A DNA stretch of 61,783 bases from an uncultured virus (IMG/VR IMGVR_UViG_3300033153_014157) (taxonomy: Duplodnaviria; Heunggongvirae; Uroviricota; Caudoviricetes). The DNA lies in the IMG/VR virus record IMGVR_UViG_3300033153_014157; one strand, 5' to 3'. The notes under the pieces are model-generated. The model searched no databases. It saw only the letters and a list, made by a program, of their open reading frames with translations, and was not told where the DNA came from. Positions 27,096 to 51,250 of this stretch are shown piece after piece (position 1 is the stretch's first letter; each line of letters opens with the position of its first letter). A program made the position numbers and the translations under genes.

Positions 27096-27135
27096 AAATT
27101 TTTTTATTAGTGCCGAGATTTAATGTTTCTGTTCA

Positions 27136-33356: not shown

Positions 33357-33475
<119 letters not shown>

Positions 33476-35680: not shown

Positions 35681-36445
35681 TCACGCAAAGTACCTTCTTC
35701 GCTTATCTATTTCGCGCTTTAGTAGCCTGAAGAATTCGACCGTTACCGCCATGAATTTTTTCTTGTCAATTAAGTCTTCTGAAAATTCAAACAAAAAGCA
35801 ATGCGCTATATCTTTATTTGAAACGACAATGTCATTACACTTACATTCCTTACAGATGAACTTGCACTTCTCGTGACATTGCGGCGCATCACAGGATTCA
35901 TTACCCGCAACTACAAGAGGTCGATACTTGGTCTTCGACCAATATTTGACGAAGATCCTCTCTATTAACGGGTGGTTAAACGAGTGCTTAATGTAAACAA
36001 CATCACTTTTATTGCCCTCAACCCATTCATGCCCGCCATTAAATGAGTGAATGTCAAAGAGAACAGGCACGCATTTATACGTCTCCGAAAACTTAAACAA
36101 GTAATACCTTAGCAATCTACGGTAATCCTCCGCACGCGCAAGAGGTCGGTTCATGTCGATGATAAAACGCCTCTTGTAATTAATTACCGCATGCCAACAA
36201 AATTCATCGTGAAGCCGCTTCGCAACATGGTCCGTCCAAAAGTCACACGCAGGGTCGGCAAGATGAGGAAGCCAAGTCGAACGACAACTATGCGGCGAAG
36301 AAACCAAATACGCACCATTACCAACTAAAATATTAACATCCAAACCACGATTCAAATCACTAACTATAAAACGAGACTCTAAATCCGCAACACTACCACG
36401 CAGGACGGCTCCATTGAAAAAAAAATATCTAAACATTAATAACAC
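35681..36445 (-). CDS. N-formylglutamate amidohydrolase-like Zn hydrolase
   Basis: VSSPHS, D.WTD, R..IDMNR, LFDIHSF, FLFEF. Confidence 0.75.
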   Translation of the reverse strand: MLLMFRYFFFNGAVLRGSVADLESRFIVSDLNRGLDVNILVGNGAYLVSSPHSCRSTWLPHLADPACDFWTDHVAKRLHDEFCWHAVINYKRRFIIDMNRPLARAEDYRRLLRYYLFKFSETYKCVPVLFDIHSFNGGHEWVEGNKSDVVYIKHSFNHPLIERIFVKYWSKTKYRPLVVAGNESCDAPQCHEKCKFICKECKCNDIVVSNKDIAHCFLFEFSEDLIDKKKFMAVTVEFFRLLKREIDKRRRYFA

Positions 36446-36744
36446 CCTAAATTAATACACGCTTTAATAAAATTACATAATGTATTAATTACAGTTACCA
36501 GCACAAAATATTGAAATAACACTAAACATCGAACACGTTTAACGCAAAATCAATGAATTATATATCTATTTAAAAAATGCTGCCAAGACAATATGGAAAC
36601 AAACATTATATCTAAAAAGGACGCACGATGGAAACAGGGAATATATCTCTAAAATCAAATAAAAACAGGCAAGATAAAATCAAAAAAAACAAAAATATAA
36701 CACAAAAACGCAAAAAATAAGGAAAAATATAAACAAAACATTCA

Positions 36745-36855
36745 AAAATGATGGCGGCGGCGAAGCCGCGGTGATTTTTCGTGTCACTGTGATTGGTGGT
36801 AGATCGTGTTGTAAAAGGGTTGGATTGCGCTTGATTGGTCTTGAGTGACGTGCTA
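36745..36855 (+). repeat. inverted element copy A (111 bp) with GCGGC-GAA-GCCGC hairpin
   Basis: Blocks 36745-36769 (25 bp) and 36841-36855 (15 bp) are exact reverse complements of 50977-51001 and 50891-50905, with identical 71-bp spacing. Confidence 0.9.
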
Positions 36856-36859
36856 TATT

Positions 36860-37370
36860 TAATGTCCGTGCGTTTAAAATTTTCATTAATGCGTTTCGTG
36901 CCATTTTTTTGTTATTATCACGTGCTTTTTTTTGCGTGATGTTGATTGGTGGTTAATGGTGGTGATTGAATTTTGATTGATGTATGTTTTTAATATAGTT
37001 CTTGCTTTCATTTTGAATGCTCGTGGATTGATGTTGATTGATGGTTGCTCGTCCTTGATTGATGGTGATTGATGCGTGTCCATGCCTGATTGTAGTTGAT
37101 TGGTTGCGTGTTTTTTTTGATTGCGTTTGATTGACGTGGTATCTTGTTAGAGCTAACGTGATTGTTGTTGATTGGTGCCGTGGATAATTGTATTGATGTT
37201 GATTGTTCTTGCATGCGTGCGTATATTTTTTAATTGACGTGATATATAATGCCCTGTTGCGCGCGGGGTGTTTTTTTGTTCCGTGTTGTTGAACGGATTG
37301 CGTTTTAGTTTAAATATGCGTTGAAAAATAGCTCAAAAAATCAAGATTTCCCGCTTGGTCACTTTGAACA
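36860..37370 (+). repeat. strand-skewed non-coding tract with repeated GTTGATTG motifs
   Basis: Multiple GATGTTGATTG copies; 37087-37105 is the exact reverse complement of 50388-50406. Confidence 0.7.
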
Positions 37371-37374
37371 TTGT

Positions 37375-37707
37375 TCAGCCGTGGCGGTAGTACGTGCATT
37401 CGCTCACGTGCCGCAACTTGTCGGCGCGCACGTCATAAATGAGTGACGTGACGTATGTAGCCTTTGAGGTCGACTTTACATGCAATTCGCCTATCATGAC
37501 GAATGGAGAATACTCGTGCCAACGGCGCCTTTGGTCGCTGATGATAGTGGCTTCCCCTATTCCAGTCGTTATAATCTTGCGCATTTCTTCCATGATTTCC
37601 TTTCTTCGTTCGGTCATGCGCTCAGACGCTATTGCCCTGTATTCTTTTAACAAGTCGTTTATTGCGCGTTTAGTGAATAACACGATGCGGTCGGACAACA
37701 TTGACAT
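37375..37707 (-). CDS. hypothetical protein
   Basis: 110-aa ORF with AT-rich upstream promoter-like region. Confidence 0.6.
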   Translation of the reverse strand: MSMLSDRIVLFTKRAINDLLKEYRAIASERMTERRKEIMEEMRKIITTGIGEATIISDQRRRWHEYSPFVMIGELHVKSTSKATYVTSLIYDVRADKLRHVSECTYYRHG

Positions 37708-37798
37708 TGCGTGATATTTATATTAGTGCGCTTTTAAAAGTCCTGCGTGCGTTTTAAAAAAAGTTAAAAATGTAGGGGTTTTATCTTGAAGAATAAAA

Positions 37799-38248
37799 TT
37801 AAATTAAACCCTTGCCAGCGCGCGCGTTTTGCTTATCATACTCGGGCAAGAAGAACTCGGGATGGTCACGTTGGAACACGTCCATGATGCCGCGCCCGAT
37901 TTCTCCGAGCGAGATCCTGAGTATGCCACAGTCATCAGTATCTCGTGCAACCTCAAATAGCTTCTTCCCTGCTAATACCCACGATTCTGTAGAAATCAGT
38001 TTGTCGCCACACAGCTCGTTTATCATGGAGATCGTGCAGCTAATGTGGGACATCATGTAGACGTGCACTGCAAATAGTGTCTTGACTTTTTTTTGGCTGT
38101 AAAAACCAAAAAAATTGCCATACAATTTTAGGAACGTGTACACGCCCCGTTCCAGCTGGCTATACGTGCGCCGCTCAATGTTAGACGGCACGTATTTTAT
38201 CTTCTTCCGTCCGCGCCGTTTTTTTTGTTTTTCATGCATGTTATTCAC
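37799..38248 (-). CDS. hypothetical protein
   Basis: 149-aa ORF with a basic N-terminus. Confidence 0.6.
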   Translation of the reverse strand: MNNMHEKQKKRRGRKKIKYVPSNIERRTYSQLERGVYTFLKLYGNFFGFYSQKKVKTLFAVHVYMMSHISCTISMINELCGDKLISTESWVLAGKKLFEVARDTDDCGILRISLGEIGRGIMDVFQRDHPEFFLPEYDKQNARAGKGLI

Positions 38249-38287
38249 CTTTTGTTTATTATTTAAAAATAAAAAAAATTAGGGATG

Positions 38288-39223
38288 TCATGCCGTGGCA
38301 GCAGCAACTTTAGCCGCGACATACTGCCTTGAATTGTTCAAAAGCTCTTCACTGTCGGCTGCCAGATATATCGTTGCAATCGTGGATAACCGTTCCGGCG
38401 CTACAACAGCATTTTTGGAGAATATATCGTTGTCTCCAGCAATCTTAGAGATGATCATGGCGAATTCGAAGATCGTTTTTTTAGAAGATGAAGAATACAT
38501 CGTGAGTGCTTCCTCTTGAATCTTCTTTCCAATGCCATATAAACGGCAAAGGACTTTTAGCGATATGGTAGCATCTTCAAGCGATAATGGTCTTCTGGCA
38601 TTATGCATGAACGATTTTGGAATTCCCGTTCTGGCAAGTGCCTTTAATTCAGCACGTAGAAGTTCTTTGTATTCCATGCTTTTTGCGTTTATGCGAAGAA
38701 TCCGACTCTGCAGCTCCACCCTGAACGTGCCAAACATTTTTGATTTCAGGTGAAGAGCATTAAGAGGGTTAAAGCATTCCTTTACCAAGAAAAATGGCGC
38801 GATTATTATCGCACGTGTCAGAGTTAGCGTTCCGGGACTCATTGCCACGCCCGGATAGACGCCACCGAAAAATTTGTTCTTAGTAAGCTTGTTTGATTTG
38901 AAGATCAAATTGCCCGCAGGCGTTTTTTCAATGCTCACGGGAAATCTCTTGGCGATCTGGATTGCTTCTTCCCGCACGTCAGCGGGATACATAATGTCGT
39001 GGTTCATGCTTGCAACGGCTTTCACGGTGTTGTTAGATATAATGTACTGTAGATCGCGGGAAGGCATTGCTGCATCGTTGAAATACTTGTCAAGATTTTG
39101 ACGATTAATTTCACGGTCTATTTTTCTTCCATAAACTAGGCGGAGATACGCCCACTTTGCCGCAACCGAAAACGGCACGGTCGGGCGTTCCTTCTGAATT
39201 AAAACTTTTTCCTTATTAGTCAT
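38288..39223 (-). CDS. DUF932-like protein (tentative)
   Basis: PGV...G......I.IAPFFLVKECFN resembles the DUF932 R.VC.NG region; GGTGA SD. Confidence 0.5.
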   Translation of the reverse strand: MTNKEKVLIQKERPTVPFSVAAKWAYLRLVYGRKIDREINRQNLDKYFNDAAMPSRDLQYIISNNTVKAVASMNHDIMYPADVREEAIQIAKRFPVSIEKTPAGNLIFKSNKLTKNKFFGGVYPGVAMSPGTLTLTRAIIIAPFFLVKECFNPLNALHLKSKMFGTFRVELQSRILRINAKSMEYKELLRAELKALARTGIPKSFMHNARRPLSLEDATISLKVLCRLYGIGKKIQEEALTMYSSSSKKTIFEFAMIISKIAGDNDIFSKNAVVAPERLSTIATIYLAADSEELLNNSRQYVAAKVAAATA

Positions 39224-39364
39224 GACGAATCACCATGTAAAGTATAATATTAACTGCTATATAAATCTTGCCACCTACCGCGACACGAATCGGAAGACGA
39301 ATTAATATAATGCCATGTTAAAGTTATTATATGTACTCATGGATAATTTATTCGGTGATTTTAC

Positions 39365-39583
39365 ATGACGGAAATGAGAAACTTGAGAAAGATATCGCAC
39401 AACGGCGGTACATTAATAATCTCTTTACCACGGGAAGTGTTTCATGACGAGCTCGGCAACGCGTTCTACATGACTGTAAAGCAGCACGATGCTGACACGT
39501 ATGTCGTAACGCTCCAGCGTGCCGCCAAGAAGCAACTTAAAACAAGTGACAAGGCTGATGTCAATGCGGTCGATGCGTTTTGA
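39365..39583 (+). CDS. AbrB/SpoVT-like DNA-binding protein
   Basis: RKISHNGGTLIISLPRE. Confidence 0.75.
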   Translation: MTEMRNLRKISHNGGTLIISLPREVFHDELGNAFYMTVKQHDADTYVVTLQRAAKKQLKTSDKADVNAVDAF

Positions 39584-39872
39584 CGAAATAGATTTCGTGA
39601 CGCTGCAGAATTCAATTGACGGCATTAGGAACTTTAAAATTCGTGACGTGAAGATCGGGTTGTCATGCACGTGGTTTTCTGCGCGCGTGAATGACCACGA
39701 CATAAAAGTGCGGATCACGAAAGACGGCAATAAAAATATGGTTGCCGGCTCGTGTTCGTGCCCTGACCATGTTTACAGGCGCAAGAAGTCGAACGGGTTC
39801 TGCAAGCACGTTTTATACTTGCTGGATTTTCTGATCCGTGAGAATGTAAATGAGGGTGACGAAATAGAGTGA
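39558..39872 (+). CDS. SWIM zinc-finger protein
   Basis: CSCPD...CKH. Confidence 0.85.
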   Translation: MSMRSMRFDEIDFVTLQNSIDGIRNFKIRDVKIGLSCTWFSARVNDHDIKVRITKDGNKNMVAGSCSCPDHVYRRKKSNGFCKHVLYLLDFLIRENVNEGDEIE

Positions 39873-40267
39873 AGGAAACGATAACATTTAGGATCCCAAA
39901 AGCGATCCGGGAAAACAAGTTAGACAAAGAGATATTGAGTGACTTCACTGTTGCTTTAGCTAATTACATCGACAAAATAAACAATGCCGTGAAAAACCGA
40001 GTCGTGAATGGGTTGAACGTGGAAACGCGTTTGATAGACGATGTAACGTTAGAGCTAACAGGCGAGGGCTTCGTGTTCCACGTCACCAATACTGACGACT
40101 CTGCCATTGAAACGATTGACATCATTGAACATCTCATCGCGAAAAAAACAATGCAGCCATCTGCAATCGCGACGCTAATATTAAGGGCGATGCGCCTTTT
40201 ATTACAAAAACAGGTGCGAGAACACGATGAGTTGGTAGCAATATTAGGCGAAATTGTAATCGCGTAG
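39869..40267 (+). CDS. hypothetical protein
   Basis: Overlaps the SWIM gene stop (GTGA). Confidence 0.65.
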   Translation: MKETITFRIPKAIRENKLDKEILSDFTVALANYIDKINNAVKNRVVNGLNVETRLIDDVTLELTGEGFVFHVTNTDDSAIETIDIIEHLIAKKTMQPSAIATLILRAMRLLLQKQVREHDELVAILGEIVIA

Positions 40268-40319
40268 CGTTTACGCTCGAACACGAAATCCTTATATATG
40301 TAAGAGCTCATTATACAAC

Positions 40320-41177
40320 GTGGTGATTCGCGTGTATATAGACGTGCCCATTGAAATTAATGAAATCACTATGATTAAAGCATATGACGCTCTCTCAATG
40401 CTTTTACAAAACCCTGACGATTCAGACGCATGGCAGCTAAATTTCAACAAGGTTGCCAAAATGATAGAAAGGAGAGATGCCGAAAATAGCGGGGATCTTC
40501 CCTTTGGCACGTCACTGCCGGCGTGGTATTGCGAAAAAAATGATGAAAACAATATATTGTTTTCCCCTCCTATAGTGCATGGTAAAAAAGCGGTCAGGTT
40601 GTCAGTGCCCGTGGCGTGCGTGGGTAATAGCACGCACATCAATGCGCGCGTGCACGTTCTCGGCAAAAATTTGAAGCCAATTCGCTCTCAATTTGCGTGC
40701 CTGACTACTACACAGTTGTCTCTATTGTCGATATTCGCAGTCTGGGATACAGTTGCCAGGATTGGCACTAAGGAAGCAGTAAACGCGGGGATCGTCACTA
40801 GAGGGTGGGTCGGTAACGTCTTCTCAGATATAAGATGCAGCGCGTATGATCCGTACTCGCAACTGGGGCGCTATGCCCGTGGTTCTAAATTATCTCCACG
40901 CAATTTAGAGCTACTCCATTTGGAACGGCAACTATTTATACACGGCATTCCGCTATCAGCCGTTCACGGCGAAGGGCGGCGCGATAACGCGGGGCGATAT
41001 TACAACTCGTGGTTTAAAGACAATTACTGCACGGCGTGTGGGCGGCGGTACAGCTACCCCTCGCGCAGATACCCTAACGCGTTCCTGTCACACGTTAAAA
41101 CAATAAAACATAGAAAAAATGCTGCCATTTTTTTATTGAGAGAGGTTGCCAGGCAGGGCAGTGACGAAAAAGAGTGA
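40320..41177 (+). CDS. hypothetical protein with C-terminal C2H2 (matrin/U1-like) zinc finger
   Basis: YCTAC...F.SH..T.KH. Confidence 0.65.
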   Translation: MVIRVYIDVPIEINEITMIKAYDALSMLLQNPDDSDAWQLNFNKVAKMIERRDAENSGDLPFGTSLPAWYCEKNDENNILFSPPIVHGKKAVRLSVPVACVGNSTHINARVHVLGKNLKPIRSQFACLTTTQLSLLSIFAVWDTVARIGTKEAVNAGIVTRGWVGNVFSDIRCSAYDPYSQLGRYARGSKLSPRNLELLHLERQLFIHGIPLSAVHGEGRRDNAGRYYNSWFKDNYCTACGRRYSYPSRRYPNAFLSHVKTIKHRKNAAIFLLREVARQGSDEKE

Positions 41178-41210
41178 CTGACCACTTTTTTTAAATGCAG
41201 GGGCGAAAAA

Positions 41211-41606
41211 ATGATACGCAAAAAAATAAAAAAAATAAAAAACTTCTTTTTTTTGAGCGGGCTTCGCAAGGCACTAAAGAAGGCAGGGTTTGAGCCGTGC
41301 GGCGACACTGGCTTTTGGTCGTACGAGGTCAGTGATGACGTTCGCTATGTCGTGAGCGAGCCAGATTTATTTTGCGGCACGTTCCATGTTTCTGAATTCA
41401 CGAAAGAAGGAGAATATGACAAAGACTCCACGTCTTACTTAGGCGTGGTGGTGCTGGATAAATTGTTAGAAATCGCAAGGACGGTCACTGGCGAGGCTTC
41501 GCTGGTCGGCTGTGACTACGGGTATTACTATTATAAAGAAGCCTGTAGGCGCAAAGGGTGGATTTTCAACGACGGCTTCCCGCCAAAAATTAAAAAAAGA
41601 GTTTAA
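41211..41606 (+). CDS. hypothetical protein
   Basis: 131-aa ORF. Confidence 0.6.
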   Translation: MIRKKIKKIKNFFFLSGLRKALKKAGFEPCGDTGFWSYEVSDDVRYVVSEPDLFCGTFHVSEFTKEGEYDKDSTSYLGVVVLDKLLEIARTVTGEASLVGCDYGYYYYKEACRRKGWIFNDGFPPKIKKRV

Positions 41607-41824
41607 TGCGAATTAAGTGCTCGGTAGAATTCATTCAATAACTTAATTCGCTTTTCCTTTCCCCGCACGAGCACGTATGCGATACTTGCAAGCTCTAGCG
41701 CGCTGTCTAGCGGCGCGTGTGGGTCTAGCTCAAGTATGTGCCAAAATAACTCAGCCACTGACTCGTGGTGGCGTGTTTTTGGCACGAAATTTTCTCTTAA
41801 CATGTCCATTTTCATACACCTCAT
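41603..41824 (-). CDS. small hypothetical protein downstream of TROVE
   Basis: GAGGTG SD before an internal ATG. Confidence 0.55.
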   Translation of the reverse strand: MRCMKMDMLRENFVPKTRHHESVAELFWHILELDPHAPLDSALELASIAYVLVRGKEKRIKLLNEFYRALNSH

Positions 41825-41839
41825 GAAGCTGGTAAGTAA

Positions 41840-43468
41840 CTAGGCATCGCCACGTTTTTTTATTTCGTCCGTCACCGTGTTACCATTCAAAACTAAATTT
41901 ATGAAACCAAGAACCGAGTCTGACCAGCCGGAAATCACGTGATTTCTAGGGTCAGACAGGTCTAAGGCAGAGTCATTAATGTAAGGGTCGATGCGTAACA
42001 AGAACGCCTGTAGGTCAGGGTTGACGGAGTCACGGTATTCCTTCAGGCACGCCATCACGCCGTGGTAGATCCATTCTTCGTTGTCAGTAATTTCGAGCAG
42101 GACGTCAGCCTTTATCCCGCGGTCTATCATTGCTTTAACGGGAATCGCAAGATCAGTTCCTCCGCCACGAATGGCTGATAAATAATCCACGATGCCCATG
42201 ATCTTCCCATGGCTTCTGTGATCAAATTCGTGCTCTTGATGATCAAATGGGATCAACGTGACGTCCTTGCATTTTTTGGCTAACGCTGCGCCAAAGATTG
42301 CCGCAATCTCTATGAAACGATATTTAGCTTTTCGAACCCTTGTTGTCATTGAGCCTGATACATCTATTCCGACTATCACTTTTCCAGTGATTTCAGGCAT
42401 GTTGACGAACGACTTTTCCAATGCAATAGCTAATGCATTTAATATGCGTGCAGGCACGCCGTTAGAACTTGCAACTTTCCAAGCTGTAAATAGCCTGAAT
42501 GGAAGGATCTTTGCCTTTTCCATGGCATTAACGTCAGTTAGTCTATCAACGATATATCCGATGTTATTAGAATCATTGAAGACACCATTCTTGTTTAACG
42601 CGTTTAGATGCCTCAATAATGCAAAGTACGGCATTTGCTTTATCATGGCTTCCCAGATTCTTGCATCAGGTTTTACAATGGACGTTGCGACTTCGTGTGG
42701 TATCTGCCCTCCCTTTATGAGTTTTAGGACTTCTTCTTCGTCACTGGCGCGCTTGAGCATCTCGTACTGCTTGATCTTTGGCATTTTAGACAACATTTCG
42801 GCAGCGACAGCCTCGTCTTGACGGCTGAACTTGTGCAGCCACGCAACGATATTATACTTGTCATTCATTTCTTCTCGTGATACATGGACTAGCTTCGTTG
42901 CAATTTTTAATTCCTTGCGGTATTTTATTGCCCAATATTCCGACAGGTTGTTAGAAAGCCATCGTTTAATGACCGACTTTATCTTGCGCCCCAAGCCTTT
43001 TCGCACGCCGAAAACATTCTTGCAAAGAAGCATGAAGTCGAACAGGTCTTTTGGGGTAAGGACCACGCGGTTAAACACGCGCTCAAATTTGTTTTTTGGA
43101 AATTTGGTGCTCAAGAACACGGCTGCAATTATTGGTTGAAGCCTCATGAAACCATTGTTGCGTGCGCATGTTGCCGCTTTAGCAAGAAAATCAGGGCACT
43201 CGTTAATTGCTTGTTTATACAAATTAAGGCTTTGTTGTAATGCTGCTCCTTGCGTGTCGTAGAAGGTTGGTTCAATAATGTTGCAGGTCAAGTTCTGCAC
43301 GATCATTAGCTCTAATGGCTGCGAAAAGGAGGGAAACCCTTCTTTGTTAACGCGCGTTGCGCTAATGCTACTAGTGTTTCTCAATATGTTACCTCCTAAA
43401 TCACGCTTGGTTACGTGATATATAAAACTTTTGATATTTTTTGGTGCGAACCTTGCCCTTGCTGGCAA
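41840..43468 (-). CDS. Ro60/Rsr TROVE + vWA RNA-binding protein
   Basis: N.EG...F, TFY, MR..P, GLGR..K....WL, MPY.ALLR.L, ILPFR, vWA MIDAS DVSGSM, GGGTD, ITDNE. Confidence 0.93.
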   Translation of the reverse strand: MPARARFAPKNIKSFIYHVTKRDLGGNILRNTSSISATRVNKEGFPSFSQPLELMIVQNLTCNIIEPTFYDTQGAALQQSLNLYKQAINECPDFLAKAATCARNNGFMRLQPIIAAVFLSTKFPKNKFERVFNRVVLTPKDLFDFMLLCKNVFGVRKGLGRKIKSVIKRWLSNNLSEYWAIKYRKELKIATKLVHVSREEMNDKYNIVAWLHKFSRQDEAVAAEMLSKMPKIKQYEMLKRASDEEEVLKLIKGGQIPHEVATSIVKPDARIWEAMIKQMPYFALLRHLNALNKNGVFNDSNNIGYIVDRLTDVNAMEKAKILPFRLFTAWKVASSNGVPARILNALAIALEKSFVNMPEITGKVIVGIDVSGSMTTRVRKAKYRFIEIAAIFGAALAKKCKDVTLIPFDHQEHEFDHRSHGKIMGIVDYLSAIRGGGTDLAIPVKAMIDRGIKADVLLEITDNEEWIYHGVMACLKEYRDSVNPDLQAFLLRIDPYINDSALDLSDPRNHVISGWSDSVLGFINLVLNGNTVTDEIKKRGDA

Positions 43469-43492
43469 CTAAAAAAAATAAATAAAAAGAAA

Positions 43493-43552
43493 AGAGGATT
43501 GGCGCAAAGGCAAGTAATGAGAATTTTTCGAAGTAGCCCTTGCGATACCTCT
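43493..43552 (-). ncRNA. candidate structured RNA / 5' leader upstream of Ro60 (Y-RNA-like)
   Basis: AGAGG/CCTCT and CGCAAGGGC/GCCTTTGCG helices (the mismatch is G-U only on the minus strand), TATA ~25 nt upstream, U-tract downstream. Confidence 0.5.
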
Positions 43553-43605
43553 ATAAATTTCGTGTTCAAGATGTTATATAAAACTTCTTATTTCGTGGTG
43601 ATGAC

Positions 43606-45282
43606 ATGACGAGAAAGATCCCTGGCTACACGAAATTGCCAATATTCGAGCAGATAAACCTTCGCGCGCTATACTCCCCGCTATATTTTTACATTGCGGC
43701 TAACTGCCATGACTGGAAGACTTCGTACCCGTGCATGCTACTTCGCACTAAGCAAGCAGAACAATGCGGTATTGACGTTAGGCGTGAAACAAAGAAGTTC
43801 ATGATTGACTCGCTCAATACCGATATCACGCCGGCAGAATTAATTAAATTACAGCAAGAGTTAAAAGTCAATACGTTTATAGCGCGTGATTCATTTCGTG
43901 ACCCCGATGCGACCACAAAGCTGATAATAGAATACCTGACGTGTTTATTGCGAGAAGAAATATTTCCAGAACGCATCATGTTAATAATTCAAGGTGATTC
44001 GGTAAAGGACTATATAACGCATTTTGACACGTTGCTCGTGCTCGCAAATAATTCAGCAGAGTGCATTAATTGTAACCATGCCGGCACGTGCAAGATATTA
44101 TTTCGCCAAAACCTTACTTCGTCAAATATCAGTTACCACGAAAGACATCACTGCGCGCGTGGCGAGAAAGAAAAGCGGAAGTGGACATTCACCTTTGGAA
44201 TTGGAGGGCTGATACGACGCGCTATAAACATGCAAGAACGCATAATAAAAGCGGTAATCCAGCACGGAATAGAGATGAACAACTCGATACAAAATGACGT
44301 TCTTCCAAAACGCACGCGTGATATAATGACCAATACTCGTGACGGGACGATAAAACGTTTCGACTATCCACCAATACAATTTCACGTGCTTGGTGTCGGG
44401 GCTTCAAAAAAAATCTTCCCATTGGTAATGCAAAATCAGCCGTACATCGAATCGTTTGACTCGAGCGTGCCGTCCCTGATTGCGACCGTCCCGAAGTTTT
44501 TCGATAAGAAATTGGCGCAGTTTCCAACTAAAAAAGAGCAGCTGAGGGCAATGCCTTACGAAACGTTAACCTTTAGGGAGGAAGATGACGTTGGAAACGT
44601 TGCGGCATTAAACGCGCTTCGGGCATATTACAACACGGCAATGATACTATACGCGATGGAAAGCAATCTCAAGATGGTTAGAGCTAACGAAACGATCAAC
44701 ATGTTAAAACGGTTCATTCCACGCCCCCCTAAATCGTCATCAATTGATGCTTCAATACTCGAATTCATATCACCAGTCATGACGAGAAAAGAAAAAATCT
44801 TATTGGGTAGTGGCTATGAAAAGAAGAAGAATGTTGGCATGGCAGACGAAAAAATAATTGGTGATGCATTAAAACGATGGACTGCTTCCTATCGCAAGAC
44901 GGGGCGAATGAATATAAGCCTTGCACTACTTCGTGCGCTCGTGATATTACAGGAAATAAATACCGTGCAAGTGTTAGCTCTAATCCCATCTATAAAAAGC
45001 CCCAGCGCGGCAATGAACGTGATAACGGACGGGTATGAGATCTGCGAGTACCCGATATGCGAAGACGCGCGCTCTTATGGCGAGTGGAAAAAAAATAGAT
45101 CTGGAAAACGCGTCCTGAAAACGATTCGCATCAAGGAGCGGTGGCTTCGCCTAGTGTTGAAACACGTGCTTGCCGATGCGTCAAAAGTCGATGAATACAT
45201 GAAATACTTGAAGCAAAAAAGAAAAGAAAAAATAAAGTTGGGAATGCTATTCGTTAAATGCGAAATCCATGGTACAGATTGA
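43606..45282 (+). CDS. tRNA-guanine transglycosylase-fold protein (TGT/DpdA-like) with insertions and C-terminal extension
   Basis: FMIDS, IARD, IIQG, FGIGGL, FHVLGVG, ESFDSS motifs in TGT order. Confidence 0.8.
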   Translation: MTRKIPGYTKLPIFEQINLRALYSPLYFYIAANCHDWKTSYPCMLLRTKQAEQCGIDVRRETKKFMIDSLNTDITPAELIKLQQELKVNTFIARDSFRDPDATTKLIIEYLTCLLREEIFPERIMLIIQGDSVKDYITHFDTLLVLANNSAECINCNHAGTCKILFRQNLTSSNISYHERHHCARGEKEKRKWTFTFGIGGLIRRAINMQERIIKAVIQHGIEMNNSIQNDVLPKRTRDIMTNTRDGTIKRFDYPPIQFHVLGVGASKKIFPLVMQNQPYIESFDSSVPSLIATVPKFFDKKLAQFPTKKEQLRAMPYETLTFREEDDVGNVAALNALRAYYNTAMILYAMESNLKMVRANETINMLKRFIPRPPKSSSIDASILEFISPVMTRKEKILLGSGYEKKKNVGMADEKIIGDALKRWTASYRKTGRMNISLALLRALVILQEINTVQVLALIPSIKSPSAAMNVITDGYEICEYPICEDARSYGEWKKNRSGKRVLKTIRIKERWLRLVLKHVLADASKVDEYMKYLKQKRKEKIKLGMLFVKCEIHGTD

Positions 45283-45546
45283 CGAATACGGAACTAACAT
45301 GCCGTATTTTTCGATATGGATGCTGCCGTTTTCTTCGCGATATATATCGTGAACGATCATTGATTCTGACAACAACACGCCTACAACTATATCGGTTAAT
45401 TCGTTGTTTGACGTCTCGATTACCAGTTCTATTGGTTCTGCGCCTCGTTCAATGTCCTTGACGAAAAAAGAATACTTTTTTGATGCCTGCGAATTCACGT
45501 GCCTAGAGGCTTCTCTTAGAAAATAACTTATATCATTTTCTAACAT
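45247..45546 (-). CDS. hypothetical protein
   Basis: 99-aa ORF with GGAGA SD. Confidence 0.55.
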   Translation of the reverse strand: MLENDISYFLREASRHVNSQASKKYSFFVKDIERGAEPIELVIETSNNELTDIVVGVLLSESMIVHDIYREENGSIHIEKYGMLVPYSSICTMDFAFNE

Positions 45547-45568
45547 TGTATCTCTCCGATTTTTTTAG

Positions 45569-45847
45569 TCACGCGCTCTTGTCTATTTCGTCCCGCAACG
45601 TATATTCGCTTTTTATTGCGGTATCAACCGCAACCTGTAGCCGACTGATTAACTCCGTCATTTCTTGAAGACTGAGTTTCATTGACTGTCCTTCAGTCAT
45701 CAATTTTACGAAGAAATATGACGGCTTTACATACTTGCCTTTATAGATAGCCGGTTTTATCACATCGACTGTCAGCTTAGACGAAACCTTGTTTTCGATG
45801 AAATGCGTGATGTCTATCACTTTTATGCTGTTTGACATTTTATTCAC
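45569..45847 (-). CDS. hypothetical protein (beta sheet + helix, possibly PC4-like)
   Basis: 92-aa ORF; fold guess only. Confidence 0.55.
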   Translation of the reverse strand: MNKMSNSIKVIDITHFIENKVSSKLTVDVIKPAIYKGKYVKPSYFFVKLMTEGQSMKLSLQEMTELISRLQVAVDTAIKSEYTLRDEIDKSA

Positions 45848-45888
45848 AAGGTTAAAATATTTTCTTCATGAATATTAAATTATTGCGC

Positions 45889-46000
45889 GGGACCGAGACG
45901 AAAAAAAAGTGACTTGAATTATTTTTAAGCTCCTCCAAAATCCTGACCGTTTTTCGTGCATCGTAGTCTTAATCGTCCCGGTCCCACCTTTTTCTCGTCT
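45889..46000 (-). ncRNA. candidate structured RNA with two overlapping long helices
   Basis: 45889-45901 pairs with 45973-45985 (13 bp) and 45896-45911 pairs with 45985-46000 (16 bp); all three mismatches are G-U on the minus strand. Confidence 0.5.
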
Positions 46001-46060
46001 TTCCACCGAAAGATTTTTTATACCGTAATGCATTACCAAATGTAAATTAGAGGTGATTAC

Positions 46061-46831
46061 ATGCTCCTTAAGAAAAAAAACCTACCACTCATCAAGGCGA
46101 TTGCAAAAATATCGCCCATGCTCACGCTAACTGATGGGGAACAGGGAACGATGTTCATGGCAAATGATGAAAACCTGAGCATTGTATCCATGCTTACCAT
46201 CAAAAACGGTGACGATTTCATTAATGATACGTTTGCCGTGGATTCAAACGTTCTCGTCAATGCTTTGAAACGGCTAAACGATGCAACGCTGATAGTCCAC
46301 GAGAATAAGATCGTGCTGAAAGAAAAAAAGAGGAAACTCAGCATAAAGAAGAGAGCCATTGAACAAGAACAAATGTTCAACATCAAGCAGCTAAAGACTA
46401 TTTTTAAGAAGCTTGATGATATCGGAACGTTCGGCGGCGATACACTAAAGATCATTTTCGATGATATCCTCATGCACTCGAAAATATCTAAAGTTCAACC
46501 GCTAGTCCACATAAAAAGCATCCACGATAAGAACCACAAGATTTCTTTTATCTTTGATGGAGTAGATAGTGAATACGAGTGCGTGCTTCCTAGCAATTCT
46601 CCTACTACTACTAATAAGAATGAGTGCAATGCATCATTCAACGTTGACATGCTTAAAAACTTTGCAATCAAGGGCGTGAAGTATCATCTAAAAACCAATA
46701 ATGACATGCCCTTGTTAATGACACACGAGGACGAAGATATAGTCCTGCAGATACTAGCAGCACCAACTGTCGAATCTGGCGATGATAACGAATTTGACGT
46801 TTCGATTAATGAGGATGATGAAAATGGCTGA
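46061..46831 (+). CDS. pcna: divergent PCNA sliding clamp
   Basis: ~250-aa two-domain pattern (M.ND....I.S, F.VD...L...LK, ASFNVD.LK, DMPL, ILAAP) with acidic tail. Confidence 0.7.
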   Translation: MLLKKKNLPLIKAIAKISPMLTLTDGEQGTMFMANDENLSIVSMLTIKNGDDFINDTFAVDSNVLVNALKRLNDATLIVHENKIVLKEKKRKLSIKKRAIEQEQMFNIKQLKTIFKKLDDIGTFGGDTLKIIFDDILMHSKISKVQPLVHIKSIHDKNHKISFIFDGVDSEYECVLPSNSPTTTNKNECNASFNVDMLKNFAIKGVKYHLKTNNDMPLLMTHEDEDIVLQILAAPTVESGDDNEFDVSINEDDENG

Positions 46832-47627
46832 AAACACTGTTGATATAGACACGTGCTCACACGAGCACGTATGCACTAATTCTAACGGCGAACAGGTATG
46901 TAGCACGTGCGGGCTAGTAATTGACGACTTTAGAGTCGTTCCAGAAGTAAGGCATTGGAAAAGAACGCATGAGCGTAACTCGTTCGCCATCACGCATATT
47001 AATAGTACCGTGCCAAACCGGCTCAAGCGGCTCAACGATTACGCGCCAATATCAAAAGCATTCAACTCGTACCTTATGTACATTTACGACATACAAAGGA
47101 TTATTGGTTTCTCCAATAACGTCAAGACCGACTTGGTGCACATAATGAAAAAAGAGTTGCGGGACAGGGGCACCAAAAACATGTATGCATTCATATTTGC
47201 CGCGGCTGTAATAATCGGGCGGCAGCACGGGGAACTGATACCGATAAAATCGATGCAGAAAATCCCTAAAATGCGTAAACGCAAACCCGGGAATTGCCTA
47301 AAGAACATTGCATACATAAAAGCCAAATATGGCTATTACATGAATCGCATGGACAAAAACCGCTTACTAAACAACATAATACAACGTCTGAAGAACATTG
47401 CAGGATTCGGCGATGAAGTTGCAATGCTCGTGTTACATGAAGCCGTCAACAATCTTGATAAAATTGACGGAATCGGCGGCGATCCAATAGGCATCAATGC
47501 TGCCCTTGTATATATCGTTGCAAAAAATTGGGTGCGAGTCACGCAAAACATGATGCACGCGGCTGTAAATGTACAGCCCGTGACGCTAAGAAGAAACATC
47601 AGGATAATAAAGAAACGCTTTAATTAA
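46824..47627 (+). CDS. tfb: transcription initiation factor IIB homolog
   Basis: Zn ribbon C.H...GE.VC..CG.VID, EVRHW, two cyclin repeats (G.DP.GI.AA.VYI, VTQ, V.PVTLR). Confidence 0.88.
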   Translation: MAENTVDIDTCSHEHVCTNSNGEQVCSTCGLVIDDFRVVPEVRHWKRTHERNSFAITHINSTVPNRLKRLNDYAPISKAFNSYLMYIYDIQRIIGFSNNVKTDLVHIMKKELRDRGTKNMYAFIFAAAVIIGRQHGELIPIKSMQKIPKMRKRKPGNCLKNIAYIKAKYGYYMNRMDKNRLLNNIIQRLKNIAGFGDEVAMLVLHEAVNNLDKIDGIGGDPIGINAALVYIVAKNWVRVTQNMMHAAVNVQPVTLRRNIRIIKKRFN

Positions 47628-47651
47628 CAAAATGGTACGAGATGGTGGAAA

Positions 47652-47786
47652 ATGCCCGTAATTGACGAGATATTTTATTTGCTTGAAAAAGAACTCGGCT
47701 TCCCGGAAACATCGGTCATAATGGAAGCCGCGTTTGAAATCAAGAGCGGGCTGGCATCCGGCAGCCTGCCTGAATGCGCCGGCTGA
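47652..47786 (+). CDS. putative 44-aa protein
   Basis: Manual translation MPVIDEIFYLLEKELGF...; GGTGG SD; followed by a T-tract. Confidence 0.4.
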   Translation: MPVIDEIFYLLEKELGFPETSVIMEAAFEIKSGLASGSLPECAG

Positions 47787-47945
47787 CCGCCTACTTTTTT
47801 TGAGGCAGATCTTTTTTTCGTCATGTTGTTACGGCGGTATATGGCTAGATTTATATACCAGTTGATACACTACTATACATGGCGACTGGCAGGATAACTA
47901 TGCTCACTGCCGGGATGAAACCAAAAAAAAAGAGGAAGGATTGCT

Positions 47946-48335
47946 ATGGCTAAGAAAAAAATGCTAGTAAATTTTTCAGGACACCCGCTTCCTGAAGCTG
48001 CTCAGAAATCGTTAGGCAAAAAATACGAAATCGTTGACTACGAAGTCCCCAACCTTGACGTCACATCGTCAAAGGCACTAGTGAATTCGACAATTTCCTT
48101 GATGGCTACATTTGTCGGAGAACATAGCGCCAAAATTAAAACTGGTGATTTCGAGATTGTCTTTCCCGGGCTTTCCCCCGTGGCTATCATGGTTCTGACT
48201 ACATTGCACGGATTCTCTGGTCATTTTCCTAAGTTCAGATGGACTTACAGGACTGACAATGGGTTCGCTGTTTCAGAAGCACTTGACCTGCAAAAAATTC
48301 GGCTAGACGCTAGGGCTGACCGTTTTTTCGTATAG
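47946..48335 (+). CDS. csx15: Csx15-family protein (type III CRISPR ancillary), orphan
   Basis: LVNFSGHPL, FPGLSPVA..VL..LHG..GHFP, F.V.E.LDLQ.IR..AR..R match the Csx15 pattern; TATA-like box at ~47850. Confidence 0.8.
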   Translation: MAKKKMLVNFSGHPLPEAAQKSLGKKYEIVDYEVPNLDVTSSKALVNSTISLMATFVGEHSAKIKTGDFEIVFPGLSPVAIMVLTTLHGFSGHFPKFRWTYRTDNGFAVSEALDLQKIRLDARADRFFV

Positions 48336-48618
48336 AATGGCAGGACGCCGTGGAACAAGAATTTTCTTTTAGACGAGCATTTGCATGCCTGATCGCGGTG
48401 CGCAGCGCCGCAAGAGAGAAGCTTGAAGATTCATGGAGGTTCCAAAAAACAATGACCGACGCAATCAACGAACTACGCCTGTTGGAATCTGCCGAAGACT
48501 TTTAAACCCTCCTGCCCTGAAGGGCTCGGCGTTCGGGGCTGCGGAATTAAACCGCGTGAAAAAAAGTCATGTTTTTTTATCTTTAACCTACAATGTTTAA
48601 AAATAATTTTCGAACTCG

Positions 48619-48885
48619 ACCTCGGGAAAAAATCACATGGATGCGTTTTTTTTAAGCGTGTAAAAAAAATGCCAAGCTGAAAATAACGGCGTGCACGTTG
48701 GTATTTTTCGTTTCCAAGAAATTTGGTGCAATGATTTTCCTCGGGGAAAAATTGCATGGATGCGTTTTTTTTAAGCGTGACTCAGTTCGTCTAAGCTGAA
48801 AAAAATGTAATACATGGCGAAATAATGGCTTTTCGAAAAAATTGCCTTTATATTTTCCTCGGGAAAAAATTGCGTGCACGCAATT
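48619..48885 (+). repeat. ~119-bp period direct repeat (2.3 copies) ending in an 18-bp palindrome
   Basis: CCTCGG(G)GAAAAA at 48620, 48739, 48857; CATGGATGCGTTTTTTTTAAGCGTG twice; AATTGCGTGCACGCAATT at 48868-48885. Confidence 0.85.
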
Positions 48886-49118
48886 ATTTTTAGGTTGTGG
48901 TGACGAGATAGACACGTGGCGACTGCCGCAGTCACATCACTACGATGGGGGTTGCATTAAAAATGGCGCGCTCTAACGACCTTTTTTTTGTAAGTGCTGC
49001 AGTCACGCCACGATAACTCGTCAAAAATAAAATGGTCTATATACCATTCATCACGTGATATTTAACATTCTCACGTGCAATTTGATTAGAGCTAACACGC
49101 ACGAAAAAAAAAGGGAAA

Positions 49119-49286
49119 TTACGCTGGGGTGTAGTGGCATTCGAGCGTCATGTCACCAGTACTGTGCCTGCATTCATTACACGCTTCCTCGCTTATTGGT
49201 AACAGGCTTGCGTTATGAACACAGTCAGGGCAGATAATGTCGTCGCTTGGGCACCCACAGTCCCAGTCAGAATCTTTTTTAGTCAC
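49119..49286 (-). CDS. 55-aa Cys-rich (Zn-binding) protein
   Basis: Manual translation: ..DCGC..ICPDCVH..ACNECRH..ECHY; below the ORF-track cutoff. Confidence 0.55.
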   Translation of the reverse strand: MTKKDSDWDCGCPSDDIICPDCVHNASLLPISEEACNECRHSTGDMTLECHYTPA

Positions 49287-49322
49287 TTTTTTTACTTCCT
49301 TGTCCGTGAACTTTTTATTAAT

Positions 49323-49700
49323 TTATATATTTATTCCGGCGATGTGCTTGCACCGCTTAATGCGTTGCCGTACAAGCCGAATCGCCTGACGATCCGCAGC
49401 CGTCATTGTTTTGCCGCGTAACCGCCTTTCAATTGCCCGAACTTGCCGCTCGGTAAAGTTTTTTAGAAGAAATTTTCTCGTGTATGGAAAATAAGAGAAC
49501 AAGACTTTATCCTCAAAGAACTGCTCGGCGATCTTTTTCTCGTCTTTCAGCTCTTTGATGTCAAGCTCTGGCAATTCGAAATTGTTTTCGTAGTAATCCT
49601 TGTTTACCAAGACGTGCATGGCAGCACAGCTACAACGCACGCGTGCTTGTTTGATAAGCGTCTCGTCATTAAACATTTTTTTGCAAAACGGGCATTTCAA
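49323..49700 (-). CDS. zinc-ribbon protein
   Basis: CPFC...CSC; GAGGAGGA SD. Confidence 0.65.
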   Translation of the reverse strand: MKCPFCKKMFNDETLIKQARVRCSCAAMHVLVNKDYYENNFELPELDIKELKDEKKIAEQFFEDKVLFSYFPYTRKFLLKNFTERQVRAIERRLRGKTMTAADRQAIRLVRQRIKRCKHIAGINI

Positions 49701-49736
49701 TTGATTCTCCTCCTCGGTTTCGCCAATTCGAGTTTT

Positions 49737-50204
49737 TTACACGAAATAAAGATAGGATCCCCCGAATTCGTGTTCCGCCGCGTCTTTTGACGAAAGGATT
49801 TTTCCGCGACCAATGTCTTCGATTGCCGCTTCAGTGAACTCCTCTAATCCTATTGCATGTTCAACAAGTAAAAGAAGATCAGCGTTCACTGATTCCGCGG
49901 CACACTCGATCGCTTTTTCGATTATCGGTCCAATCACGTTGCCCAATTCGATATCACACGTTTCAGCGATATACGTGCCTGAAAACGTGTATAAATTTTC
50001 CTTAACTGCTTTTATACACGCTTTGTCTGCTTCCTTTTCGCTCAATGCGATTGCAACTGAGCTGTTGGGAGTCGAAAAAACAGGAAGCCCGTAATGATGC
50101 TCTTTTTTGGCACGTATTTCGTCTTCTTGTACGCCAAGCCATCTTGAAATTATTTGTTTGGGCGTTTCACGCTCCATTTCATTATTTATTGTTGCTTCTG
50201 CCAT
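49737..50204 (-). CDS. hypothetical acidic protein
   Basis: AGGTGA SD and TATA-like box upstream. Confidence 0.7.
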   Translation of the reverse strand: MAEATINNEMERETPKQIISRWLGVQEDEIRAKKEHHYGLPVFSTPNSSVAIALSEKEADKACIKAVKENLYTFSGTYIAETCDIELGNVIGPIIEKAIECAAESVNADLLLLVEHAIGLEEFTEAAIEDIGRGKILSSKDAAEHEFGGSYLYFV

Positions 50205-50329
50205 TTTATCACCTTGCTGTTAGTACTATATACTCACGCAATACATATAAACGTTATGGATCAACAATACCAAGAAAAAGTGAACGGTACTTCGACACGT
50301 GCTGCCATTTTACTTTAACTCGAAAATCA

Positions 50330-50890
50330 ACACGGAACATCACGCCGCAAGAAAGGCATCAATCAACATCAATACGACGCGGCACGAAACCAATCAACTA
50401 CAATCAAGACGAACTCCAATACATGCAACATCAATATTAATGCATCTAAAATGATCGCCCACCAATCAACATCAATCGGGGTAAACCTAAATTTATAATA
50501 CATCAATCTACATCACGCGCATCACGCACGGAGAAATACAACATCTACCAAACGCAATCTAACTCGATCCAACATCAATCTCGACCAATCTACAAGAACG
50601 CAGCAACATGTAACCACAATCAACCTATATATAACTACAATCAACTTCAATCAGCACGCATCAAAAACAAAAAAAACAAAAAAAATAAAGGAAAAGCACG
50701 CAATATAAAAGGACACAAAATCAGTGCCACGCAAACAAAAAATCAAAACACGCAGAGTAATCAGTAAACACGGGAAACAGGCAACCACGCACCACATTAA
50801 CTAAAGCACCTGATAAAAGACGAAAAAATACAGCCCGTCAGATGCAAGGTAAATAAAAAATAAAATGCAATCATTTAATATTAAAAAATT
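50330..50890 (-). repeat. strand-skewed non-coding tract with repeated CAATCAAC motifs (mirror of 36860-37370)
   Basis: CAATCAACATC copies; 16- and 19-bp exact inverted matches to the left tract. Confidence 0.7.
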
Positions 50891-51001
50891 TAGCACGTCA
50901 CTCAAACTCAATCAAGCACTATCAAAACCATTTCTACCACGATCACGAGGCAATCAAAAACGACGCGGAACGACCTGCGGCTTCGCCGCCGCCATCATTT
51001 T
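50891..51001 (-). repeat. inverted element copy B (111 bp)
   Basis: Reverse-complement homolog of 36745-36855. Confidence 0.9.
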
Positions 51002-51250
51002 AGCGGTTTTTTTCTTTATTTTATCGTTTTTTCGTGTTTCGTGTTTTTTTTTAGATGCCTTTTGTGCCGTGTTTCTATTTGTGCCGTTTTTTTTCCAATT
51101 ATTGTCGCCCTAACGTGCTCGTTTTAATCTTGCGACTGATTTTTGTTTATCTCTGCGTTCTTCCTTCCTTGCGTTATATTTTTTAAAAAGAGTTGGTATT
51201 TTTTTTTGCTTTTATCGTGTTTTCGTGTTTTTGATTTTTTTTTATATCTG

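Follow-up and report, generated by a model that had tools for sequence, protein, structure and literature searches.

The question raised by the locus described here is which function is carried by two similar non-coding tracts that face each other around a block of genes. The locus lies in the IMG/VR record IMGVR_UViG_3300033153_014157, a DNA stretch of 61,783 bases from an uncultured virus assigned to the Caudoviricetes, which was analyzed as a whole and is called the window in the following. Two modules, which with 929 and 1046 bp exceed all other non-coding tracts of the window, are termed L (36446-37330, + strand) and R (50250-51260, inverted). The window represents an archaeal-type mobile replicon, i.e. 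part of a large archaeal extrachromosomal element with its own replication genes, and it is tentatively proposed that both modules act in cis as replicators (origin-like sites) of this element, an assignment which is plausible, although we would not give it an even chance.

A conserved core with a GAA mini-hairpin

The comparison of the window with itself, which had been suggested as a dot-plot in a preliminary description of this DNA together with a search for further copies, was made by BLAST and ranked the pair of module cores (Table 1) as the strongest repeat of the window, with 171 columns, an identity of 73.7% and an E value of 1.7e-16. No third copy of the core was found in the window. 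The core alignment of L and R comprises no gaps over 157-171 bp, at 73.7-73.9% identity and E values from 1.7e-16 to 5e-18. Over 157 bp, five short blocks are kept in strict ungapped register, with diverged sequence in between. A 25-mer, AAAATGATGGCGGCGGCGAAGCCGC, is exactly shared between 36745-36769 (+) and 50977-51001 (-), and a 15-mer, TTGAGTGACGTGCTA, between 36841-36855 (+) and 50891-50905 (-). The gap between 25-mer and 15-mer amounts to 71 nt in L as well as in R, so that the two blocks and their spacing are found as they had been reported in the preliminary description. TGATTG, GATCGTG and GCTTGATTG are likewise core blocks at fixed register. Outside the core, the arms of L and R can be aligned through their motif content alone and are about 72% alike.

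The GCGGC-GAA-GCCGC element reported before for both cores, GCGGCGAAGCCGC, consists of a 5-bp stem and a 3-nt loop. Even with one mismatch allowed, just two sites were detected in the 61,783 bases, and two matches were reached in none of 100 shuffled sequences. In both modules, the heptamer GCGAAGC is closed by G-C pairs, as in the known mini-hairpin sequence. Exactly conserved are the hairpin and the 12 nt on its 5' side, and the last base of this identity is the 3' base of the stem. In the 3' flank of the hairpin the sequence shows no conservation, and a T5 run follows 6 nt (L) or 16 nt (R) downstream. Since the GAA hairpin is located on the + strand in L and on the - strand in R, the two hairpins, which are 14.2 kb apart, lie on complementary strands.

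ORFs (open reading frames) of 74 and 82 codons cross the two cores, which would be in line with small conserved proteins encoded by the tracts. However, the shared blocks are read in different frames, and the 33 mismatches of the 111-bp core are distributed over the three codon positions as 11/10/12. Protein-coding cores are ruled out by these two observations, and the case of both tracts encoding conserved proteins, which the preliminary description had held against its own interpretation, did not apply. Chance similarity is opposed by the E value of the core alignment and by the shuffling result for the hairpin motif. Coding and chance readings of the cores are thus excluded. With regard to an assembly artefact, the L junction is present in a second independent contig (see below), and the R junction was seen in one assembly only. 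Altogether, small proteins, chance or artefact as the origin of the similarity retain a negligible probability. Since the block-wise conservation is real and non-coding, functional cis-sites are a reasonable conclusion, and the strict register of the five blocks fits a stereospecific assembly of protein on DNA.

A structured RNA was also considered. In the modules, no match to Rfam was obtained at the gathering thresholds. The best sub-threshold scores were 14.8 bits for sR30 (threshold 38) and 17.2 bits for DnaX (threshold 35), so that a C/D-box small RNA or another Rfam family was rejected as sub-threshold noise. In folds of the core alignment, the 5-bp stem was the sole invariant common element, whereby two sequences provide no power to detect covariation. 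An extended conserved secondary structure was rejected as well, since only this stem is common and the stability lies at the level of shuffled sequences. A strong TATA box shared by both cores was sought, and no canonical one was found at equivalent positions.

Helically phased repeats in the inner arms

The inner arms of both modules carry arrays of the pentamer GATTG, with 18 copies on the + strand in L, 15 on the - strand in R and none on the opposite strand of either module. Judged by the rest of the window, 2.0 copies would be expected, as against the 33 counted. The distances between the copies form a ladder of 10, 21, 31, 41, 51/52, 62, 72, 82/83, 92/93, 103, 113 and 123 bp. The best period was 10.25 bp for L (phase coherence 0.86) and 10.35 bp for R (phase coherence 0.85), and for each module the observed coherence was reached by none of 2000 random placements. 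Based on this ladder, all sites occupy the same helix face through about 40 turns, corresponding to approximately 400-450 bp. The three GATTG sites inside the conserved core share the helical phase of the remaining array. A composite unit, GATTG-N5-GATTG-N1-4-CGTG, recurs every 31 bp and was reported as a 31-bp unit by Tandem Repeats Finder as well. By arithmetic from the base composition of the arms, (C)GTG occurs on the T-rich strands at about 8 times the expected frequency. An inverted match of 24 nt with one mismatch (19 nt exact) connects 37087-37110 with 50383-50406. The inward-facing arrays noted in the preliminary description were therefore recovered, each confined to one strand of its module. 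Direct repeats in helical phase, as they are characteristic of iteron-type origins, are thus found in both modules. Among the matches listed in a literature search with GATTG and archaeal origin terms, the motif was not found.

The extended form GATTGG is present 8 times in both modules together compared to an expectation of 0.3. Its complement CCAATC corresponds to the core of the eukaryotic CCAAT/Y-box, and TGATTGAT (36916-36924) resembles the Pbx-Hox site. These likenesses are probably coincidences.

Long arrays of direct repeats are also known from plasmid centromeres, where parC is bound by ParR and tubC by TubR. The modules could therefore be partition sites or loading sites for genome organization, on whose phased repeats a protein polymerizes as in these systems, and which pair or move apart as a unit. 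Arrays on one helix face with 10-bp pairs every 31 bp, as well as the presence of two dispersed copies, would be compatible with such a role. However, no NTPase of the ParA, ParM or TubZ type was detected among the scanned ORFs of the window, and an A-tract arm is not required by the known centromeres, nor is a hairpin core whose conserved flank is strand-asymmetric. Since only half of the 123.8-kb contig described below is visible, a partition operon may lie elsewhere. Altogether, a function in partition is considered unlikely.

A-rich outer arms and the strand switch at the hairpin

Along the GAA-loop strand, the outer arms contain 53% (L) and 57% (R) A, while the inner arms contain 45% T, 25-27% G and 11-12% C. 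Read from 5' to 3' on this strand, both modules consist of an A-rich arm, the hairpin and a T/G-rich arm, which agrees with the strand switch that had been pointed out before. The outer arm of L comprises nine runs of A5 or longer and no run of T5 or longer, and that of R nine runs of T5 or longer on the + strand. Beside the hairpin, the centers of the A-tracts are about 10 bp apart. The 100-bp windows starting at 36419, 36639 and 51234 belong to the ten least stable ones of the whole 61,783 bases. An adjacent A+T-rich region of low stability, the second attribute of iteron origins, is hence present beside the arrays. On both strands of both modules, 0-1 runs of T5 or longer were counted before the hairpin and 7-9 after it.

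The combination of a hairpin with oligo-T can also be explained by transcription. Accordingly, the modules would be transcription boundaries or regulatory platforms, in which RNA polymerase arriving from either direction would first pass an arm without oligo-T and then encounter hairpin and oligo-T as a terminator wall, and the GATTG array would bind a wrapping regulator of the Lrp type (31-bp spacing) for the flanking units that read outward; a small A/C-rich RNA with the hairpin and a U-run at its end might be made as well. The counts of T5 runs on either side of the hairpin fit this explanation, as does the T5 run within 6-16 nt of the stem on either strand. The stretch from the 15-mer to the hairpin is independent of reading frame and, together with the U-run, could yield an RNA of approximately 90-100 nt. 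In addition, a nested inverted pair of 52 nt with the box TTTATATA would drive genes outward in the direction of the modules (Table 1). On the other hand, the flanking genes are not convergent, both neighbors being on the - strand at each module, and a terminator requires neither a phased array of 400 bp nor an exact 25-mer. Furthermore, the cores carry no canonical TATA box at equivalent positions, no Rfam match above noise was obtained for the modules, and the 5-bp stem is the only shared fold in two sequences that allow no test for covariation. A role as transcription boundary is consequently judged to be rather improbable, though it deserves some weight.

The modules as candidate replicators

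Viewed by analogy, the phased array on one strand, the putatively bent and easily melted A-tract arm, the GC palindrome and the 157-bp core can be described as the layout of an iteron-type replicator. Among the functions listed in the preliminary description, paired strand-specific priming origins fit best to the iteron-like repeats, the A-tract arm, the mini-hairpin and the strand-asymmetric flank; its more general claim of functional cis-sites was upheld, while its ends of an invertible or excisable unit were not (see below). The gene content of the element, which encodes Orc1/Cdc6, PriS, an RPA-like SSB, NrdD and a PCNA-like clamp, was counted in favor of a replicator.

From the anatomy of the modules, their repeat statistics, their non-coding nature and the replication genes, we infer the following possible mechanism. 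A sequence-specific protein would coat or wrap the GATTG(-N5-GATTG-CGTG) array, which keeps to one side of the helix for about 400 bp, and would thereby load stress on the adjoining A-tract arm, which is predicted to be intrinsically bent and easily melted. Once this arm became single-stranded, the GCGGC-GAA-GCCGC strand could snap into an exceptionally stable mini-hairpin. Hairpin and conserved 12-nt 5' flank might then mark a start site in the T-rich 3' flank for the primase of the element, i.e. PriS and a probable PriL. With the hairpins of the two modules on complementary strands, synthesis that uses the GAA strands as template would run outward from both modules.

Hairpins with the sequence GCGAAGC are described as extraordinarily stable and as situated at the start sites of primases or polymerases in phage G4, RSF1010 ssiA and phage N4 (PMC13037366). 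At the origin of RSF1010, RepC binds the iterons, RepA unwinds the DNA, and two inverted ssi hairpins of 40 nt are located on complementary strands (PMC8567376, PMC4234260). The ssiA hairpin contains a mini-hairpin with a GAA loop, CCGAAGG (PMC13037366). For priming, RepB' attaches to the hairpin and its 5' flank, and the primer is begun at a T of the 3' flank (PMC8567376, PMC4234260). The oriV of the IncQ plasmids RSF1010 and R1162 therefore resembles the present locus in its direct repeats, its easily melted region and two inverted hairpins on complementary strands with a GAA-loop mini-hairpin. In contrast, the ssi sites of RSF1010 are placed together in one origin, whereas the hairpins described here are 14.2 kb apart and each possess their own array of about 450 bp and an A-rich arm. 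The iteron unit of RSF1010 comprises about 20 bp, compared to 10.3/31 bp for the repeat unit found here. Moreover, the IncQ origin belongs to a small bacterial plasmid, and the present element to an archaeal host system with Orc1, PriS and a PCNA-like clamp; no homologues of RepA, RepB' or RepC were found. Despite these differences, the logic of the modules is, by analogy, closest to that of ssiA/ssiB.

Other known systems share single attributes. The promoter hairpins of the N4 virion RNA polymerase have a 5-bp stem and a 3-nt loop of GGA or GAA (PMC13037366). The heptamer d(GCGAAGC) of G4 and N4 is embedded here in the same way, in a 5-bp stem with a 3-nt loop, but the signals of these phages act on single-stranded phage DNA or in supercoiled early promoters, while the modules are 0.9-kb duplex regions of an archaeal element. 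An N4-like RNA polymerase was not seen in the window. The Sulfolobus plasmid pRN1 uses a structured origin and a GTG-specific primase (PMC4234260); it possesses a stem-loop of 100 nt and no iterons. Like pRN1, the present element is an archaeal mobile element, and (C)GTG is enriched about 8-fold on its T-rich strands; unlike pRN1, it exhibits a 13-nt palindrome and large arrays, and CGTG is also over-represented throughout the window (observed/expected 1.6). With respect to geometry, the pair of oriS origins in herpes simplex virus (HSV) comes to mind. Its inverted repeats bracket a short unique segment of about 13-14 kb, are kilobases long and owe their lasting identity to recombination, and the segment undergoes inversion. 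The oriS pair and the modules have in common two mirror-oriented copies around a segment of about 13-14 kb; in the modules, however, only short blocks are identical, and evidence for inversion is absent.

A number of observations weigh against the proposed replicators. Archaeal origins of the Orc1/Cdc6 type consist of an AT-rich duplex unwinding element flanked by inverted origin recognition box (ORB) repeats beside the initiator gene, and the ORB sequences differ widely among origins (PMC4010727). An AT-rich candidate for unwinding beside repeats and an element encoding Orc1/Cdc6 are given here as well, but the repeats are restricted to one side and to one direct orientation, and the modules are at least 12.5 kb away from the Orc1/Cdc6 gene (12.5 kb for the nearest). 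No recognizable initiator gene lies beside the modules, whose neighbors are orphans; neighboring orphan genes are located at 37375-39223, 39365-41606, 49323-50204 and 51251-52073. Folded as single strands, the cores of 131 nt did not surpass shuffled sequences in stability (z from 0.01 to -0.51), whereby the DNA parameters of ViennaRNA used for these folds, in which the 5-bp stem does appear, carry no bonus for GNA loops. The stem of 5 bp is too short to extrude by itself from duplex DNA. The third-position GC skew does not change its sign at L, and the window contains other origin-like tracts, namely the array at 26987-27098 and the (TAA)34 tract as its least stable spot. Finally, two mirror-oriented origins 14 kb apart are unusual, and the replicator reading is drawn from sequence.

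A more specific version of the replicator proposal, which we offer as doubtful, regards the modules as a mirror-image pair of unidirectional, strand-specific priming origins. They would be an archaeal counterpart of IncQ ssiA/ssiB split over 14 kb, each with its own phased array and A-tract arm, would be served by PriS/PriL of the element and would fire outward. A large arc of the element, which measures at least 124 kb, could then be copied in leading-strand mode, and the segment with Ro60, the PCNA-like clamp and Csx15 would be replicated, and perhaps regulated, separately.

To our knowledge, hairpin-guided priming is so far known from single-stranded DNA phages and IncQ plasmids, and the origins of large archaeal elements or viruses were almost all derived from skew or from the proximity of orc1. 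We know of no iteron-plus-hairpin replicator that has been dissected in one of them. In the case that the modules are origins, hairpin-guided strand-specific priming would also occur with archaeo-eukaryotic primases, and the modules could provide vector parts for uncultivated archaeal lineages. As compact candidate cis-sites they comprise the 25-mer with GCGAAGC, the 15-mer and the 31-bp composite repeat in phase over about 40 turns. If they are instead centromeres, boundaries or fork barriers, they would add a hitherto new class to the sites at which archaeal proteins assemble on DNA.

Strand skew and replication direction

In the left part of the window (1-36445), the + strand showed a third-position G excess of 0.077 (95% interval 0.043-0.112) irrespective of gene orientation, which suggests one replication direction over these 36 kb. 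In the enclosed segment this excess fades to 0.018 (interval -0.037 to 0.055). Such a change would fit modules that act as polar barriers to replication forks and, in the manner of inverted Ter sites, either trap the forks or set a terminus between them. The opposite, facing polarity of the arrays, the gene orientation converging on the region and a cumulative GC skew with its peak at 48-49 kb are consistent with this, as is the disappearance of the G excess between the modules. However, the raw skew is largely an effect of the coding strand, and since the enclosed segment also differs in the GC content of third codon positions (GC3, 0.50 vs 0.36), the missing skew may reflect a different history and is thus ambiguous. 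Moreover, A-tract arm and mini-hairpin would have no role in a barrier, and we know of no Ter/Tus-like system in archaea that could serve as precedent. Fork barriers are therefore regarded as very unlikely.

The enclosed segment and recombination

Identical blocks of 25 and 15 bp in inverted orientation around a segment of 14.2 kb might also be the substrates of recombination, either as ends of an invertible or excisable segment or as terminal inverted repeats (TIRs) of a nested mobile element. The base composition gives this explanation some substance. The GC3 of about 0.50 in the enclosed segment, compared to 0.36 left of L, rises exactly at L, and the strand skew seen in the left flank is missing from the segment. 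However, the GC3-rich block (37331-58464, 0.47-0.55) begins at L but ends near 58.5 kb, 7 kb beyond R, and thus contains R in its interior. It comprises the enclosed segment and four genes to its right, and the last two genes of the window show values of 0.43-0.44. Att-like repeats between L and the boundary at 58.5 kb were considered and rejected.

The remaining tests argue against recombination as well. In scans of the window ORFs against Pfam, PHROG and NCBIfam, which were not exhaustive and left many ORFs as orphans, neither a recombinase nor a transposase family was detected (no integrase, resolvase/invertase, DDE, HUH or Cas1), and no recombinase gene was found in or beside the segment. 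The longest direct match at the outer borders, a possible target duplication, was 8 nt, a length reached by 123 of 300 shuffled sequences. The identity between L and R does not peak at the termini but at 36721-36870, i.e. some 300 bp inward, and declines in the direction of the outer ends. Terminal conservation with a target duplication and an enzyme inside, as known for TIR transposons and casposons, is hence not observed. Since the arms are only about 72% alike, they are not homogenized by frequent recombination.

A bias in short words, which looks like restriction avoidance or a signature of DNA modification, also extends across the borders. GGCC is absent from the window, compared to about 94 sites expected from a second-order Markov model, TGTG/CACA reaches 0.39 of its expectation, and CGTG/CACG is 1.6-fold over-represented. 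All three deviations hold equally to the left of L, between the modules and in the block on the right. On account of the common lack of GGCC and deficit of TGTG, the whole was treated as one long-resident replicon, which does not favor a mobile segment. In addition, genes from either side of L occur together on a 27,663-bp contig of a second strain, which is unbroken across L. The ends of an invertible or excisable unit, as considered in the preliminary description, could consequently not be substantiated, and recombination substrates are hardly probable.

Second strain and search for relatives

By exact look-ups, the proteins of the window were assigned to a JGI/IMG contig with a length of 123,783 bp, of which the window thus shows only half. 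A second strain with at least 99% protein identity was found on contigs of 8,938, 27,663 and 12,273 bp. Since NrdD and three of the enclosed genes have variants on the 27,663-bp contig, this contig crosses L without interruption and provides independent support for the L junction. No assembly break of the second strain was observed at L. Its breaks are situated within 22.7-27.8 kb and within 50204-52049, the latter at or just beyond R, and fall in or beside repeat-rich non-coding tracts.

Further relatives were searched for at the level of DNA. An exact 22-mer of the core gave no match in IMG/VR. The combined pattern of hairpin and block gave one, which was rejected as a chance match inside a GC-rich coding region. 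The double-GATTG pattern was present in 97 stretches of IMG/VR, and the two that were inspected are simple tandem repeats. Against 98 IMG/VR loci, the modules yielded no blastn match and only two weak tblastn matches. In genome contigs, a 20-mer of the core matched at least 120 loci, all with a GC content of at least 52% around the match, and none of these matches listed showed a second block or a GATTG cluster; AT-rich relatives may lie beyond the matches listed. Likewise, nothing was matched when 36000-51700 was compared with phages and plasmids by megablast.

At the protein level, scans of IMG/VR with the 254-aa and 488-aa proteins, an alignment of the paralogues described below and NrdD revealed no relatives; neither did scans of JGI metagenome contigs with Ro60 and protein P0001 or of genome contigs with the paralogue alignment. 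With Orc1, tblastn against phages gave three distant haloviral matches at 24-25% identity. The ORFs neighboring the modules showed no family match in Pfam, PHROG or NCBIfam and no sequence match in the PDB, and PDB sequence searches with four proteins gave zero matches. For the 311-aa neighbor, the single-sequence model of AlphaFold reached a pLDDT (predicted local distance difference test score) of 37 and was unusable. A search among representatives with the 572-aa protein gave three distant matches beside the query, two of which were scanned and had no Pfam family. The label of a DnaB-like helicase N-terminal domain, derived from a 50-aa fragment that clusters with this protein, was not confirmed by Pfam. 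Histones or other small DNA-binding proteins were rejected as well, since 14 small or newly scanned ORFs, mostly from a set of 55 small ones, gave no DNA-binding Pfam family.

Gene content and further features of the window

The positions of the features are summarized in Table 1. Most other ORFs of the window are orphans without a family. The names given to the enclosed genes in the preliminary description hold for Ro60 (Pfam), Csx15 (NCBIfam) and the PCNA-like fold (Atlas model), while the TGT-like protein is a lead only and TFB stays below threshold.

Table 1. Location of the module parts, genes and nested repeats in the window of 61,783 bases.
Feature	Position	Strand	Remarks
Module L outer arm	36446-36744	+	A-rich, phased A-tracts, low duplex stability
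Module L core	36692-36860	+	25-mer, mini-palindrome 36757-36769, 15-mer; BLAST repeat with R
Module L inner arm	36791-37300	+	18 GATTG in helical phase, 16 CGTG
Module R inner arm	50360-50959	-	15 helically phased GATTG (CAATC on +); 16 CGTG, likewise on -
Module R core	50886-51052	-	15-mer, mini-palindrome 50977-50989 (GAA loop on - strand), 25-mer
Module R outer arm	51002-51250	-	A-rich on - (T-rich on +); internal 49-nt direct repeat 51008-51056 / 51199-51247
Enclosed gene segment, 12.9 kb	37375-50204		Ro60/TROVE, TGT/DpdA-like, PCNA-like, TFB-like, Csx15, orphans
Nested 52-nt inverted pair, left copy	39230-39281	-	TTTATATA box; upstream of outward-reading genes 39223->37375
Nested 52-nt inverted pair, right copy	47834-47885	+	TTTATATA box; upstream of outward-reading Csx15
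Ro60/TROVE	41840-43468	-	Pfam match
TGT/DpdA-like protein	43606-45282	+	Atlas lead only
PCNA-like clamp	46061-46831	+	Atlas model, TM 0.77
TFB-like protein	46782-47627	+	Sub-threshold zinc-ribbon match only
Csx15	47946-48335	+	Above NCBIfam cut-off
HerA-like	7400-9088		
Mre11-like	9085-10503		
Rad50-like	10448-12715		
Putative PriL	13339-14499		
PriS	14496-15524		
Orc1/Cdc6	22688-23989		
NrdD	30392-32260		
RPA-like SSB	32321-32911		
N6/N4 methylase	34076-34918		
C5 cytosine methylase fragment	61440-61781		Cut by window end

The nested pair of 52 nt shows 81% identity (E value 3.4e-6 in the self-comparison of the window) and is probably a shared promoter; the gene downstream of its left copy is the outward-reading one for the 311-aa protein. 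Since the pair lies upstream of outward-reading genes on both sides, the region can be regarded as a mirror-symmetric domain. Downstream of Csx15, three direct repeats of about 119 bp are located at 48620-48897, the third of which holds a perfect palindrome of 18 bp, AATTGCGTGCACGCAATT. The ORFs over these repeats look spurious.

To the right of R, a cassette of two genes is duplicated in tandem (52049-55133 and 55256-58464). The encoded proteins of 488/543 aa and 504/565 aa are paralogues with 34-35% identity. They gave no family or PHROG match and no homologue beyond a 99% copy, the search for homologous proteins with the 543-aa protein retrieving just this one.

Three candidates for DNA modification are present in the window, namely the N6/N4 methylase, the TGT/DpdA-like protein (a lead for deazapurine in DNA) and the C5 methylase. 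Left of L, a unit of 11 bp, AAAAATAAACG, is repeated about 10 times at 26987-27098 in the divergent intergenic region that separates an ArdC-like gene from the gene at 27136-27687. This second phased array is another candidate for a protein-binding or origin-like tract. The (TAA)34 microsatellite at 33375-33473 represents the least stable 100 bp of the window, and the gene beside it encodes 130 aa, compared to 99 aa in a divergent version of the second strain. A gene with a NADAR domain (28547-28960, - strand) is split into adjacent ORFs of 69 and 63 aa, which could result from a frameshift or indicate a pseudogene.

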